From a phage: a DNA stretch of 24,434 nucleotides. The first letter of the stretch is position 1; every line of letters starts with the position of its first letter. The DNA lies in the NCBI GenBank assembly GCA_021031555.1, contig GCA_021031555.1_4954.1. One strand, 5' to 3'. Position numbers and translations under genes: made by a program. Positions 19,801 to 24,434 of the stretch are shown piece by piece. The notes under the pieces were generated by a model. The model was not told the DNA's origin and searched no databases. It saw nothing but the letters and a program-made list of their open reading frames with translations.

Positions 19801-20031
19801 ATGGATAAATTCAGCATATTACGTAACACAACCGGGGGGATCTCTTTAAGCCGCGCACAAGCGGCTTTAGGCTTCCTCGTGGTAACAGGCATTCTGATTT
19901 ATCAGGCCGTGGACCGCACACTTGATGATACAGTGCTGTTAACCTATTTCGGTTTCTGTATAGGTCAGTATGTTGGTGCTAAAAAAATCGCTGTAGATAA
20001 ACAACGAGGTACACCAAATGATAACCCGTAG
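19801..20031 (+). CDS. putative holin (two predicted transmembrane segments)
   Basis: 76 aa from ATG 19801; hydrophobic segments ALGFLVVTGILIY and VLLTYFGFCIGQYVGA; between endolysin and spanins. Confidence 0.55.
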   Translation: MDKFSILRNTTGGISLSRAQAALGFLVVTGILIYQAVDRTLDDTVLLTYFGFCIGQYVGAKKIAVDKQRGTPNDNP

Positions 20032-20416
20032 TGTGTTAATCACCGTTGTTGCAACTGTTCTAGTATTAGGCACTGGTGCGTATACGTGTTACCACGCGGG
20101 ATATAAAGCACGGGTAAATGAAGAACGTCAGGAACGTTTAGACGATGCACAACGGGAACAACAACGGTTAAAGGCACAACAGGAACTGGCAGATGATGTA
20201 CTTCGTGGTTTAGCTGACTGGTCGCAGAATACTAAAATCGTGGAAATACGACATGAAAAGACTAATACTGTTTTTCGTAACGAGTGTCTTACTTCTGAAT
20301 ATCAACGCTTGTACAACGAACGAGTTACCGAAGCAGAAGCCCGTTTATCAGGCCGCATTAGTTCAGAAGTGTCAGACCGAAAACCTTCCACGGCTGAACG
20401 GTCTGACAGGAAGTGA
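20018..20416 (+). CDS. i-spanin (Rz-like)
   Basis: 132 aa; N-terminal transmembrane segment then a charged coiled-coil periplasmic domain; start overlaps the holin end. Confidence 0.7.
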   Translation: MITRSVLITVVATVLVLGTGAYTCYHAGYKARVNEERQERLDDAQREQQRLKAQQELADDVLRGLADWSQNTKIVEIRHEKTNTVFRNECLTSEYQRLYNERVTEAEARLSGRISSEVSDRKPSTAERSDRK

Positions 20417-20501
20417 TTCAACAGATGTTAATGACCAGTGGTTAGATATTTATTTCAAATGTGCAACTATTCACAACGCATTAGTAGACAGTCTTCAGTA
20501 A
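20253..20501 (+). CDS. o-spanin (Rz1-like outer membrane lipoprotein)
   Basis: 82 aa in the +1 frame, starting inside the i-spanin and extending 85 nt past its stop. Signal peptide with a lipobox-like LNINA|C; Pro- and Cys-containing mature part. Confidence 0.7.
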   Translation: MKRLILFFVTSVLLLNINACTTNELPKQKPVYQAALVQKCQTENLPRLNGLTGSDSTDVNDQWLDIYFKCATIHNALVDSLQ

Positions 20502-20714
20502 ATCTTCAACCGACACCTCAATCCACGATGCGGGAACCGGATATTCAGTCCGGTACATGAACAAGGATGTTCCTATCAACCCGTGTGGATCTGTTTTAAT
20601 CCCTCGCATGTTCAACAATGGAAAAAACTGTTCGCGTGTTTGTGGCAATCTTGCAAAGCGTCCTGTCGGGCGTTTAGCAGGATCCATAGGGTTGAATTCA
20701 ACGATTGTGGACAT
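20481..20714 (-). CDS. hypothetical protein
   Basis: 77 aa; ATG 20714 with GGAG 9 nt upstream; overlaps the Dam-like gene 3' end and the o-spanin 3' end. Confidence 0.4.
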   Translation of the reverse strand: MSTIVEFNPMDPAKRPTGRFARLPQTREQFFPLLNMRGIKTDPHGLIGTSLFMYRTEYPVPASWIEVSVEDLLKTVY

Positions 20715-21219
20715 AACAATAACTCCTGTACGCTTGTCGTTTTATTTTCTGATAGTCAGAAACTTTTACAGATCTCGTTTTACATTCACCGATGTGAAGT
20801 GGGTCGAAAACAAACATCACCTGTGAACGGTCATTTCCTCCTGCTGGTAACCCGGTGTCAGGATCTACAAACGCTATACGACCTTTAAACATCCATAGTT
20901 CTGAACAATGTGTCAGTGCTTTGTGAAACCAGTCTGCAGACGTCATAGCGTTCACGAGTAATAACGAACCAGTTCCCTGATAAACAGTGGTTATTATTTT
21001 ATTAACCCAGGGAGACGGATCGCTGTACGGTGGGTTACACCAGATGAACCCACCACCATTACTTTGAACAATCGAATGCCAGTCTTTATTCAGACTATCA
21101 GTGATAAACAACGAACATTTAGCGTTAGAACCATCGGTACACACATCAAGAACAAGTGGGAATTCACGAGAAACATTATCAATAAAATCCCACGGTGTTT
21201 CCCAGTTGTCTTTAGCCAT
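20698..21219 (-). CDS. DNA N6-adenine methyltransferase (phage Dam-like)
   Basis: Start taken at ATG 21219 (MAKDNWETPWDF...). Has the WETPxxxF N-terminus, LDVCTDG and a CNPPYS (NPPY) catalytic motif. Confidence 0.8.
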   Translation of the reverse strand: MAKDNWETPWDFIDNVSREFPLVLDVCTDGSNAKCSLFITDSLNKDWHSIVQSNGGGFIWCNPPYSDPSPWVNKIITTVYQGTGSLLLVNAMTSADWFHKALTHCSELWMFKGRIAFVDPDTGLPAGGNDRSQVMFVFDPLHIGECKTRSVKVSDYQKIKRQAYRSYCYVHNR

Positions 21220-21565
21220 GTTCCGGTACGCTCTCCACGCTGTAATACACAGGAATACCCAGACGTTCAGCTTCTGCAATTTCTGCTAGCGTACCAGATG
21301 AACGACGATAATCAGGAAGCACCAGAACAGCGTCACAGCGGCGCATAACTTCTAATGTGCCTGACAGGTAGTATTCAGGTTGTATATTGCGTAAACCGCC
21401 GTCAAAGTCCCACAATTCGGTGTTCTTGTGAGGGATAACCGGGAACCACCCAGGACGTTGTAAAGCAAGTCTTTTACCTGCCTGTTCAGCGCGCGACACG
21501 TTACGGGATGTTTTAAGCGCACAATCAGCACGATAAGGCCCAGCAATGTAACAGAGTTTAATCAT
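21212..21565 (-). CDS. nucleoside 2-deoxyribosyltransferase-like / DUF4406-like protein
   Basis: 117 aa from ATG 21565 (MIKLCYIAGPYR...DAVLVLPDYRRSSGTLAEIAEAERLGIPVYY). Pattern recalled from this small Rossmann-like family; not searched. Confidence 0.45.
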   Translation of the reverse strand: MIKLCYIAGPYRADCALKTSRNVSRAEQAGKRLALQRPGWFPVIPHKNTELWDFDGGLRNIQPEYYLSGTLEVMRRCDAVLVLPDYRRSSGTLAEIAEAERLGIPVYYSVESVPEHG

Positions 21566-21789
21566 GGTTGTTTTCCTGCATCTGTATAATGAGCTATGAT
21601 TTCTTCCAAACAATTTATTGTGAAGAGAAATTTTAAACCAACCCGACATTCCCAAATATGTTCTCTCAAATCTCTTGGGTCGGTGTACCCTCCGACAATA
21701 ATAAAATTTTTAATCTTTTGTTTATATTTATCGGGAACGAAGTTGAAAAAGTCACGTTTAGTCTTAATTTCCAGACTGAATCTACTCAT
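21562..21789 (-). CDS. hypothetical protein
   Basis: 75 aa; translationally coupled to both flanking genes. Confidence 0.5.
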   Translation of the reverse strand: MSRFSLEIKTKRDFFNFVPDKYKQKIKNFIIVGGYTDPRDLREHIWECRVGLKFLFTINCLEEIIAHYTDAGKQP

Positions 21790-22318
21790 GACGATTCATC
21801 CCTTCTAACATGTCCCAGATAAGTGCAACACGACGCGGATCCGTGCTGATAGTGTGTAAAGTTTCACATCCGTAATGCCACCCCCAACGAACGGATAGTT
21901 CTGACAACAGATAGCCACGAGAATTAGCCAGTTCAGCCAGTTCACCGGGTTTAAATGTTGTTGTATTAGGTTCTGTAAGAACACGAGTACCACAGATAGC
22001 GTCACTGATGCGCCACGGTTTCATCAGATCATCAACCTTATACCAGTTACTGATACTGATTTCAGACGTTCCCCAGCGTGCAGCCAGTTTAAGACGTTCC
22101 TGACGGGCCGGGAACATTGGCATCTGTGGTAAACGCAGTTGGATCTGTTCTGCAGGTTCGAACATGTCGTCGTCTGTTAAACGAAATTCACCACGGTCAT
22201 CAATATAAAAACCACGGGAACGACCATCACGGGTGAACCCGTCAACACGGTTGTAAATTTTACCGGGAGTAAAGACACCAATCGGTGAACCAGCTACAAA
22301 TTTGTGTGAAGTATGCAT
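21782..22318 (-). CDS. hypothetical protein
   Basis: 178 aa; immediately downstream of the polymerase gene on the same strand. Confidence 0.6.
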   Translation of the reverse strand: MHTSHKFVAGSPIGVFTPGKIYNRVDGFTRDGRSRGFYIDDRGEFRLTDDDMFEPAEQIQLRLPQMPMFPARQERLKLAARWGTSEISISNWYKVDDLMKPWRISDAICGTRVLTEPNTTTFKPGELAELANSRGYLLSELSVRWGWHYGCETLHTISTDPRRVALIWDMLEGMNRHE

Positions 22319-22357
22319 TGTTATCGCCTCAATAAGTTTTAAATAATTCTATACGGT

Positions 22358-24214
22358 TTACCGAAGTGGTGCAACGAGTTTTTCAGCTTCTTTGATGTAA
22401 AAATCATAATTTAGCGTTGCCCGGTTAAAACGTTTCATGTCGTTGCACTCAGTGGTCAACCAACCTTTACACACTGACATGCGTCGTTCAGGCGCGTCAG
22501 GGTTCAGTTTCAGTGATTTTGCCAGCGGTGGCATGACTTTTGTCAACGGTGCACCATCTGTACTGACGTAATAACGGGTAATGTTCTGAACCTGTTTGTC
22601 ACCCCATAGTAATTTGCTGTTACGCGGTACTTTCGTCACCAACATAAAATCGTGAATGTCTTCGTGTGATGTTATAAAATCACGAATGTCTTTATTGTGT
22701 ACCAGTGCTGCTTCAGCCGCTTTTGCGACAACCTGCATACTGTGGTTTTGATGCCAACCCAGATCAACACTGTGGCAATAAGCACCTTTACGTTTAACTT
22801 TCTTACCACCTTCATAAACAGCGATGTAGTTATTTACATCGCGGATAAACATCACGTCATAAATCGCTTCTTCAAGCTGGAGTCTGGTTAATTTTTCCCA
22901 CGCGTGACGAACCTGTTCCACTTGTCCGGTAAATACTCGTGGTACGTAAACCGTAAGACCATCTGTGTTAGCCTGGATCATGGATAAACCAGGGATTTTC
23001 AGAAGTTCTTCCGCCAACATGCACAAAAGCAATTGTCCGTTAATCGTAATAGCCATTGTGTATGCGGGATCGTAAAACGGGCTGTATACGTTATTACTGT
23101 CACCGTATACACCGTTTAACGCCAGTTTTAACATTGCGTTTTCTGGTGTACCTTTCGGGTAACTGGAACGCATGTCGTAAACATTTTTATAAATGGTGCA
23201 AAATTGTTTTCCCAAATGTGCAGGGTAAAGTTCATTACTAATTGCAAGGTTTGGATAAAAACTGGCAACATCCAGATCGATGATTACATAATTTTCAGTG
23301 GACCTTATAGTTTGAGATTCAATAGACCCGTGGATACCACCCGTACCAAAATCAAACGAGAACCCGTTAATGTCTGCGCTTAAATCAGTAAACACACCTT
23401 TTGTTTCAGTGATGACTTGTTGGCGTAACCAGTTAAGAACACGATTAAATTCAGGCTGTTCAAAATGAACATAAGGGAAAATCACGCTGTTTAATGCGAT
23501 TGATGGTCTGTGCGTCTGCCGTGGTTTTCTGCTACCCGGTTCGAAACATTGAATACCTGATTTTTCAAGTTCCATAATGAAATAGTCTTTACCGATTTTC
23601 GTGTCATTATGATTCATGAAATTACGACCGTATTTAGCAGAAAGTTCACGACGAAAATCTATCAGCTTTTTACTGTGTTTATAAAACATCAAAGTCGCTT
23701 TCAAATCGTGTATCAGGTATTGACGAAGCGTATCAATTTGAGAATCGGTTAAATAAGTCCCTGGTGTAAACGGGAGGTCTTCAATGTTTTCCATTCTCAT
23801 ATTGAATTCAAGTGTTTTCAGACTTGTTCGTTTTGCCTGATTGTCGAAATGATGAATTTTATACAAATCAAGCTGGGGAACTATCCAGTCTTTTTCCCAC
23901 ACCATATGAGCAAAACGATTTTCATCACCAGCGTTAATTATCGAATCACCTTTTTTATAAATGTCTGCGTTGGTGATGTACATGATGTTGTTCAAAATAG
24001 AATGCTGAACAGGATAGTCGTAACCCAGATTGTTATAACCAACTTCTTCAGCGCGATGTTCACGCAAATATTCTGTGAACAGGTAAAAAGCCTGACGATC
24101 ATCGCGACGATGTGAAATCTCAAAAATATAAGGTGTTTCAGTTAACGCGTGAATAGCACCGAACAGAAAAACATTAGGATAGTTTTCAATATCATGAACG
24201 TAAGCATCTGACAT
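22358..24214 (-). CDS. family B DNA polymerase with 3'-5' exonuclease domain (compact)
   Basis: 618 aa. Exo I (HDIEN), Exo II (YNNLGYDY) and Exo III (YLIHD) motifs. Polymerase motif A (DLDVASFYPN), motif B (KLALNGVYG) and motif C (ANTDG). AGGA RBS. Confidence 0.75.
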   Translation of the reverse strand: MSDAYVHDIENYPNVFLFGAIHALTETPYIFEISHRRDDRQAFYLFTEYLREHRAEEVGYNNLGYDYPVQHSILNNIMYITNADIYKKGDSIINAGDENRFAHMVWEKDWIVPQLDLYKIHHFDNQAKRTSLKTLEFNMRMENIEDLPFTPGTYLTDSQIDTLRQYLIHDLKATLMFYKHSKKLIDFRRELSAKYGRNFMNHNDTKIGKDYFIMELEKSGIQCFEPGSRKPRQTHRPSIALNSVIFPYVHFEQPEFNRVLNWLRQQVITETKGVFTDLSADINGFSFDFGTGGIHGSIESQTIRSTENYVIIDLDVASFYPNLAISNELYPAHLGKQFCTIYKNVYDMRSSYPKGTPENAMLKLALNGVYGDSNNVYSPFYDPAYTMAITINGQLLLCMLAEELLKIPGLSMIQANTDGLTVYVPRVFTGQVEQVRHAWEKLTRLQLEEAIYDVMFIRDVNNYIAVYEGGKKVKRKGAYCHSVDLGWHQNHSMQVVAKAAEAALVHNKDIRDFITSHEDIHDFMLVTKVPRNSKLLWGDKQVQNITRYYVSTDGAPLTKVMPPLAKSLKLNPDAPERRMSVCKGWLTTECNDMKRFNRATLNYDFYIKEAEKLVAPLR

Positions 24215-24293
24215 AATAAAATCCTGATAAGTAAATGGGGCACTATGGCCCCATGTCTGTTTAAAGCGGTATGTCGTCCCAGTTCCAGTAACT

Positions 24294-24429
24294 ATCAGTA
24301 ACCGTTACCATTGAGAAAATTCGGGGCCGGGGTGGTCATTACCATATAACCGTTAGCGATCAGTTGTTCATCGTTCCAACCTTGCGCAATAAACTGTTCG
24401 TAAGTTGCACCACCTGCTTTTTCAGTCAT
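24294..24429 (-). CDS. small ORF or 3' end of a gene continuing beyond the window edge
   Basis: Frame open to the window edge; an ATG at 24429 would give 44 aa; followed by a palindromic hairpin at 24235-24254. Confidence 0.2.
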
Positions 24430-24434
24430 TACTT

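Follow-up and report, generated by a model that had tools for sequence, protein, structure and literature searches.

The closest described counterparts of the locus considered here are found in siphoviruses related to phage 9NA. The gp60-gp64 cluster of 9NA (NC_025443) and the corresponding clusters of Sasha, Carvaje, vB_EcoS_PJ16 (PJ16) and KarinMuster_Bas82 (Bas82) present one gene order: a DNA polymerase, the equivalent of a 178-residue protein, a small variable gene, a protein resembling nucleoside 2-deoxyribosyltransferases (NDT-like), a DNA methylase and the equivalent of a 77-residue protein. The same order is found on the minus strand of a phage contig of 24,434 nucleotides (GenBank assembly GCA_021031555.1, contig GCA_021031555.1_4954.1; the whole of this stretch is referred to as the window), where five genes between positions 20481 and 22318 follow the polymerase gene. 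The likeness extends to the start/stop overlaps of the genes, and the conserved backbone proteins are 84-100% identical to those of the window. However, 9NA and Sasha carry a 393-residue methylase of the PF01555 family together with NinX, in contrast to the 173-residue Dam-type enzyme (PF05869) and the Arn.1-like protein of the window, and PJ16 has an additional Macro-domain gene. The order and the overlaps are likewise annotated in 9NA (gp64 to gp60), Sasha, Carvaje, Bas82, PJ16, KP13-27, phi_KPN_H2 and BU9. The cluster is already annotated in these GenBank relatives, and the novelty lies in details: the precise swap junctions, a common methylase tail and the reading of the active site of the NDT-like family DUF7768.

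A looser resemblance exists to the accessory clusters of the lambdoid nin region (NinX, Dam-type methylase, RusA and small unknown proteins). These clusters likewise consist of small early genes with translational coupling, NinX or a methylase among them, and in contigs of temperate phages the DUF7768 homologues adjoin RusA, single-stranded DNA-binding protein (SSB), Lar and methylase genes. However, the window cluster belongs to a virulent phage, where it follows a polymerase gene, and it combines defined exchange slots with a fixed backbone.

Judged by its sequence, the window is DNA of an Escherichia coli 9NA-like (Nonanavirus/Sashavirus) virulent siphovirus. A megablast comparison of positions 20400-22400 with GenBank phages gave 24 records, all of them 9NA-like siphoviruses (Nonanavirus, Sashavirus, Carvajevirus). 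The best match was Escherichia phage vB_EcoS_PJ16, with 100% coverage and 96.8% identity, while Bas82, a phage of the BASEL collection, showed 95.5% identity. In PJ16 the minus-strand unit consists of helicase, exonuclease, gp2.5-like SSB and DNA polymerase genes, continues with the genes studied here and terminates tail to tail against the lysis cassette.

These comparisons allow us to propose that the locus is the distal end of a leftward replication operon, in which three backbone genes (coding for the 178-residue, the NDT-like and the 77-residue proteins) are interleaved with two exchange slots, and that an orphan protective methylase occupies one slot beside an independent nucleotide-acting enzyme. 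Taken as a whole, this explanation is considered probable, with considerable room left for doubt. Slot A would hold NinX or, in the window, a protein like T4 Arn.1; slot B would hold a methylase that differs between phages in its family and its target-recognition region. As the pattern of swaps suggests, the methylase would act alone, as an orphan, sequence-specific protective enzyme, and recombination in the conserved flanking DNA would replace it as the phage encounters hosts with different restriction systems. The active-site residues of the DUF7768 protein suggest that it would act separately on the nucleotide pool, in the manner of a 2'-deoxynucleoside 5'-monophosphate N-glycosidase. The translational coupling of the genes would reflect one common operon and not one pathway.

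In slot B a methylase is found directly 3' of the NDT-like gene in all nine fully compared relatives and in IMG/VR loci L012-L018 and L020, and it belongs either to PF05869 or to PF01555, ranging in size from 173 to 517 residues. The PF05869 Dam occupies the slot in the window, PJ16, Bas82 and locus L020. An enzyme of 259-265 residues from PF01555 is present in Carvaje and locus L012, with which L013 groups in the local scan with hidden Markov models (HMM), and PF01555 enzymes of 393 to 517 residues are present in 9NA, Sasha, phi_KPN_H2, KP13-27 and BU9. The PF01555 lengths in the slot are 259, 393, 443, 476 and 517 residues. The four longer enzymes have a common catalytic core, 85-90% identical to the 393-residue 9NA enzyme outside two inserts. 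These two hypervariable inserts, located between the DPPY and FTGSGS motifs, set the enzymes apart from one another and are presumably the target-recognition regions.

The borders of the slot are sharp. In the nine phages compared, the methylase ATG (in ATGG) is located directly at the conserved 3' end of the NDT-like gene, whose stop it overlaps, and the similarity stops exactly there, so that the 5' junction is precise to the base. At the 3' junction the similarity resumes just before the ATG of the 77-residue gene. In its first 17 nucleotides this gene also codes for the C-terminal tail of the methylase located upstream, whatever its family, which explains why unrelated PF05869 and PF01555 methylases end in a common five-residue tail, YV(H/N)NR, followed by the stop codon. 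The 17-nucleotide overlap recurs with unrelated methylases in 9NA, Sasha, KP13-27, phi_KPN_H2 and BU9. Across the 9NA-like phages the NDT-like protein is 90-98% identical and the 77-residue protein 88-100% identical, while the identity between methylases of different families is only 12-19%. To judge from these sequences, the slot has the behaviour of a cassette exposed to diversifying selection, as would be expected of an orphan protective methylase.

One further gene was observed at the 3' border of the slot. In PJ16 a Macro-domain gene of 146 residues (PJ16_068, L001:3322-3762; PF01661, E value 9e-20) is located between the Dam and the 77-residue genes, and it is missing at this junction in the window and in Bas82. 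It may be a counter-defence gene directed against ADP-ribose.

The 173-residue protein of the window is predicted to be a Dam-type N6-adenine DNA methyltransferase of the PF05869 family. It scores 107.3 bits against PF05869 (cut-off 28.1, E value 9e-31, profile positions 8-149 of 169), matches phrog_111 and contains motif IV, (D/N)PPY, in the form NPPY at residues 62-65 (nucleotides 21036-21025). It resembles the phage Dam family (PF05869/TIGR01712) in this motif, in its small single-domain size, in its location in a phage early region and in a score far above the Pfam threshold. It differs in its low identity to known members, which is 36% to the best characterised relative, the Dam of VT2-Sakai/933W, and about 30% to the enzymes of T1-like phages, and in narrowly missing the cut-off of the TIGR01712 phage_N6A_met equivalog (92.4 vs 97.05 bits). 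In the phage collection its identity to other proteins does not exceed 40%, six E. coli 9NA-like phages excepted, and the PDB sequence search gave no significant match. A non-specific adenine methylase similar to Hia5 was considered and rejected: the Hia5 family has its relatives in E. coli Dam, DpnM and T4 Dam, not in PF05869, and Bas82 is sensitive to restriction-modification (RM) systems. The early region of PJ16 also encodes a second, cytosine-specific methylase (51225-51905) and an 892-residue protein annotated as type I RM (44677-47355). The Dam-like enzyme is therefore not the sole methylase of this type of phage.

The NDT-like protein of 117 residues exceeds the Pfam cut-offs for DUF7768 (PF24963; 36.4 bits vs 26) and DUF4406 (PF14359; 30.4 bits vs 22), but it does not reach the threshold of the true NDT family PF05014 (Nuc_deoxyrib_tr; 17.7 bits vs 28.8). 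Among 5.8 billion proteins searched, 248 homologues were found, which carry both the DUF7768 and the DUF4406 labels of Pfam; many of them are located on contigs of tens of kilobases, the typical size of a phage genome. The AlphaFold2 model, based on an alignment of 48 sequences, has a pLDDT of 95.2. The nearest folds found with Foldseek are those of NDTs, DUF1937 (1T1J), MilB/BcmB and DNPH1, with 6EVS, 7M5H and 2A0K among the matches (TM scores of 0.55-0.69, normalised to the query). The model allows an NDT-superfamily, flavodoxin-like fold to be predicted with confidence.

It is important to compare the residues of the putative active site with those of characterised members of the superfamily, for which a triad of Tyr, Asp/Asn and Glu and the logic of the 5'-phosphate pocket have been described (PMC12884076). 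Glu95, invariant in the 48 sequences, is matched in the alignments by the catalytic Glu of both BcmB and TbPDT. Tyr6, at least 90% conserved, aligns with the triad Tyr in strand 1 of TbPDT (IYIAGP), where the ribonucleotide-specific enzymes MilB and BcmB have Phe. The third position of the triad, eight residues before the CDAV strand, corresponds to Thr70, which aligns with the Asn of TbPDT KNIQMIKDCDAV and varies in the family (T, D, G or A). Ser89, six residues before Glu95, is invariant, as is Gly91; at the position of Ser89, BcmB likewise has Ser, but the nucleoside-specific TbPDT has Asp. The choice between Ser and Asp six residues before the Glu separates 5'-phosphate from 5'-OH substrates (Rcl S87/E93, LlNDT D92/E98, MilB E103). 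The Glu nucleophile, the ribose-excluding Tyr and the Ser at the position that separates nucleotides from nucleosides suggest an N-glycosidase of the nucleotide type. The protein is best described as a putative 2'-deoxynucleotide N-glycosidase-like enzyme without one canonical triad residue.

The 117-residue protein thus resembles DNPH1/Rcl, MilB/BcmB and phage DmtZ in its predicted fold, its Glu95 nucleophile, its phosphate-type Ser89 and its deoxyribose-type Tyr6. However, this family has Thr or a variable residue at the third triad position, where DNPH1 has Asp and both DmtZ and TbPDT have Asn. The protein also differs from the dNMP/NMP N-glycosidases in being shorter, below the PF05014 threshold and in separate families, DUF7768/DUF4406. 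An S-adenosylhomocysteine nucleosidase that would relieve product inhibition of the methylase was considered as a further candidate. It is disfavoured, as Tyr6 marks the deoxyribose-specific members of the superfamily and most homologues have no methylase nearby.

Several points weigh against the explanation proposed above. The characterised members of the Dam family (T1 Dam, HP1 Dam, VT2/933W Dam) are specific for GATC, but for the window methylase this target would be a mere precedent, at only 36% identity to the best characterised relative. In the 117-residue protein, Thr in place of the triad Asp/Asn may mean a poor N-glycosidase or a different chemistry, and no report of the activity of any DUF7768, DUF4406 or DUF1937 member was found in the literature searched. 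The helix-turn-helix (HTH) at about residues 65-96, through which the 178-residue protein may bind DNA, is suggested by signals that are weak and sub-threshold. Within the 9NA-like lineage the methylase and the NDT-like gene are adjacent in 100% of cases and translationally coupled. Outside the lineage, the neighbours of DUF7768 homologues were scanned in 80 viral loci fetched with the family alignment, using crude open reading frame (ORF) calls and loci that were not de-replicated; among the annotated genes directly beside them, methylases were the most frequent (11 of 131 neighbours, both sides pooled), and a loose functional link may exist.

The composition of these neighbourhoods is informative. 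Methylases account for eight of the 69 downstream neighbours (four N6_N4, two C5, one Dam and one MT-A70), the others including dNMP kinase, dATP/dGTP diphosphohydrolase, UDG, RusA, RdgC, 5'-3' exonuclease, PolA and Lar. On the upstream side three of 62 neighbours are C5 methylases, and the remainder are primase-polymerase, helicase, ligase, nucleases or unknown proteins. Flanks of about 4 kb contain a methylase in 17 of 71 loci according to the local HMM scan, and the contexts of single homologues are consistent with this. On this sequence evidence the DUF7768 family appears to live in replication and recombination modules. Residence in the same module fits better than a common pathway, because methylases are absent at most loci and are of chemically different kinds when they are present.

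The sequence-only reading of this DNA had gone further in one respect, proposing that the methylase, the nucleoside-handling enzyme and the two unknown proteins of 178 and 75 residues form a DNA-modification or anti-restriction module or manipulate the nucleotide pool. Protection by the methylase and a role of the 117-residue protein in the nucleotide pool are reasonable. However, the slot swaps, the neighbour surveys and the data on Bas82 and 9NA give no support to a single coupled module of the methylase and the NDT-like protein. Nor do the two unknowns support it, as no sign of an enzyme was seen in either; the 75-residue protein is homologous to T4 Arn.1 and the 178-residue protein gives weak HTH signals. 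In its strongest form the proposal would be a pathway of these proteins that installs a non-canonical or hypermodified base and confers broad anti-restriction. The tight translational coupling and the invariable adjacency of the methylase and NDT-like genes in 9NA-like phages speak for it, as does precedent: NDT-superfamily enzymes belong to phage base-replacement pathways, namely DmtZ in Z-genome phages (PMC12884076) and the NDT of dZ contigs (bioRxiv 10.1101/2025.10.22.683976), and such characterised phage enzymes edit nucleotide pools. However, four of the five proteins have nearly identical counterparts in Bas82 (methylase 97%, NDT-like 97%, 178-residue 99% and 77-residue 100%), and yet this phage shows marked sensitivity towards RM systems and has no recognisable modification locus according to its authors (PMC11990801). 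The virion DNA of 9NA is cut into fragments by restriction enzymes (PMC4153490). These two results disfavour hypermodification or broad anti-restriction. The abundance of GATC in the window (80 sites) is a further point against hypermodification, and no annotated gene or Pfam match for a base-synthesis enzyme (PurZ, TGT/DpdA, hydroxymethylase) was found in the window and in PJ16 16500-57756. As the family of the methylase also changes while the NDT-like gene remains constant, and most DUF7768 homologues have no methylase nearby, a common base-modification pathway is regarded as extremely unlikely.

The same genes could be viewed as an anti-defence island, in which the NDT-like enzyme destroys a nucleotide-derived immune signal or its substrate (of the ADP-ribose type, or cyclic nucleotides), while the methylase, the Arn.1-like protein and the Macro-domain protein of PJ16 each counter another defence. 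The rapid turnover of accessory genes in the slots, with NinX alternating with the Arn.1-like gene and the Macro-domain insertion in PJ16, would agree with this, as would the Lar restriction-alleviation genes near the homologues and the distant relationship of the NDT fold to TIR/ThsB (EcThsB2 appears at low rank in Foldseek). Nevertheless, this view is quite improbable: the conserved Tyr6 excludes ribose in the superfamily (MilB/BcmB have Phe), contrary to signals based on ribose; the BASEL defence panel revealed no unusual resistance of Bas82; PADLOC and the anti-defence literature gave no match for the DUF7768/DUF4406 family; and the typical neighbours are replication and recombination genes. 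It might also be supposed that the DUF7768 enzyme sanitises the nucleotide pool by hydrolysing methylated dNMPs (m6dAMP, 5-methyl-dCMP) derived from degraded methylated DNA. They would then not be re-incorporated at random, and progeny DNA would not be targeted by modification-dependent (type IV) restriction. The commonest annotated immediate neighbours are indeed methylases of different chemistry (C5, N4/N6, Dam, MT-A70), the active-site residues (Tyr6, Ser89, Glu95) are those of the dNMP type, and human DNPH1 reportedly sanitises hmdUMP and binds N6-substituted AMPs. However, about three quarters of the homologues have no methylase within 4 kb, and the adjacency may merely reflect common residence in early or replication modules; this role is judged highly unlikely. 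If true, it would account both for the first rank of methylases, irrespective of their chemistry, among the annotated neighbours and for the fixed and translationally coupled pair in 9NA-like phages, and it would represent a new functional link between epigenetic protection and the hygiene of the nucleotide pool. An orphan protective methylase beside an independent nucleotide-acting enzyme remains the explanation that we prefer.

The 75-residue protein in slot A matches phrog_4452 ("anti-restriction nuclease", E value 4e-25) and is 58% identical over 62 residues to the Tequatrovirus G50 gene in the arn.1 position; in T4-type phages arn.1 is located directly upstream of arn. The protein is also similar in length to T4 Arn.1. 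However, its gene is located in the replication operon of a siphovirus and not in the motA-arn-asiA early region of T4, and it is unrelated to Arn, the McrBC inhibitor. A single pairwise comparison with T4 Arn gave no significant similarity (16% identity, E value 0.027), the PDB search gave nothing significant, with no Arn structure among the matches, and no report was found in a literature search for arn.1. The label "anti-restriction nuclease" in PHROG and GenBank appears, from these comparisons, to be a spill-over of the name of T4 arn to its neighbour arn.1; functional evidence behind the label was not found. The family gave 806 tblastn matches in the phage collection, mostly in T4-like phages. 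Among the 24 9NA-like records only PJ16 is included in them, with 97% identity, and all other matches are below 60%. In Bas82, 9NA, Sasha and Carvaje the slot contains NinX or a gene annotated as NinX, the Bas82 protein matching NinX at 3e-12, whereas the 75-residue protein has no match to NinX (PF10765) or to any other Pfam family.

The 178-residue protein (phrog_19205) is, as far as sequence searches reach, restricted to the 9NA-like lineage. Seven clusters were found among 5.8 billion proteins and seven among 1.84 billion representatives, and the full HMMER scan of the latter added only six distant relatives. The HTH signals consist of sub-threshold matches to Phage_CI_repr, HTH_23 and Homeodomain, with Phage_CI_repr at 7e-4 in three of 13 family members, and of an alignment of residues 65-96 with helices 2-3 of a homeodomain in the PDB profile search (E value about 0.1). 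The PDB sequence search gave nothing significant. The AlphaFold2 model, based on eight sequences, is poor (pLDDT 52), and its Foldseek matches, eS4/KOW-like and PetP SH3-like, cover the N-terminal beta region only, with a TM score of about 0.27. Two similar "RWG" segments, LAARWGTSEISISNW and ELSVRWGWHYGCETL, were observed in the protein; they may represent an internal duplication of an HTH-like unit. The 77-residue protein (phrog_25980) was found in only 24 phage records, all of them 9NA-like, with 86-100% identity.

The coordinates of the genes and of their overlaps are presented in Table 1.

Table 1. Genes of the minus-strand locus and their overlaps, with positions in the window
Feature	Position	Strand	Remarks
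DNA polymerase, 618 residues	22358-24214	-	Upstream gene, same transcription unit
178-residue protein	21782-22318	-	Conserved backbone; equivalent of 9NA gp64
75-residue protein	21562-21789	-	Variable slot A; T4 Arn.1 homologue
117-residue protein (from ATG)	21212-21565	-	Conserved backbone; DUF7768/DUF4406, NDT superfamily
173-residue methyltransferase (from ATG)	20698-21219	-	Variable slot B; predicted PF05869 Dam family
77-residue protein	20481-20714	-	Conserved backbone; equivalent of 9NA gp60
Overlap ATGAGTAG	21789-21782	-	178-residue/75-residue genes; sequence reading
Overlap ATGA	21565-21562	-	75-residue/117-residue genes; sequence reading
8-nucleotide overlap ATGGCTAA	21219-21212	-	Stop of NDT-like gene/start of methylase; 5' junction of methylase cassette
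17-nucleotide overlap	20714-20698	-	Stop of methylase/start of 77-residue gene; 3' junction of methylase cassette

The list of ORFs and the reading of the minus strand place five translationally coupled ORFs after the polymerase gene. They confirm the five tightly coupled genes and the three overlaps given in the sequence-only reading, to which the 17-nucleotide overlap is added as a fourth. The other assignments of that reading, an NPPY adenine methyltransferase and a small protein of the NDT/DUF4406 type, are borne out by the Pfam scores and the predicted NDT-superfamily fold; the HMM searches do not place the 117-residue protein in an unrelated family. A ribosome-binding site, GAGG, is located 8-9 nucleotides 5' of the ATG of the 178-residue gene. 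As all five ORFs have HMM or homologue support and their order is equally annotated in relatives, they represent genuine conserved genes and not chance ORFs. Promoter- and terminator-like matches over positions 20200-24434 are not more frequent than in shuffled sequence. Within 20481-22318 the sole promoter-like match on the minus strand is a weak 9-of-12 site at 21624-21596, and no terminator-like match was found on this strand. The scan agrees with co-transcription of the cluster with the polymerase gene. Searches of the region for Rfam families, tRNAs, inverted repeats and meaningful direct repeats were negative.

At the other end of the cluster, an o-spanin ORF on the plus strand (20253-20501), embedded in the i-spanin ORF (20018-20416), overlaps the 77-residue gene tail to tail by 21 nucleotides (20481-20501). 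No terminator-like hairpin was found between these convergent units. Antisense ORFs of 54-101 residues on the plus strand inside the genes were treated as by-products of the minus-strand coding sequence.

The polymerase matches PHROG 1252 ("DNA polymerase", E value 2e-215) and has no Pfam match at E values of 0.1 or below. It is 99% identical to the polymerases of PJ16 and Bas82 but only 57% identical to that of 9NA, while the flanking 178-residue protein is 84% identical to its 9NA equivalent. The clade of these phages carries basal PolB genes from distinct clades, and the drop in identity relative to the flank would fit the polymerase replacement described for it (PMC11348598). In word composition, the 80 GATC sites of the window are mildly below the 110 expected from a Markov model. 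CTAG is strongly depleted (four observed vs 25 expected), and low counts were also obtained for AGCT and TCGA. Of the six-base palindromes, 16 do not occur anywhere in the 24 kb.

The locus is an ordinary, already annotated accessory cluster of a known phage group, and the main value of the analysis lies in correcting what its annotation implies. The label "nucleoside 2-deoxyribosyltransferase" on the 117-residue protein is better read as a putative nucleotide-type N-glycosidase-like enzyme without one triad residue. The DUF7768/DUF4406 family is widespread in phage replication modules, and a 97% identical copy is available in the genetically tractable BASEL phage Bas82. In the base-precise methylase slot, nature would offer a clear illustration of virulent phages changing their protective methylation while the translational coupling of the operon is kept.

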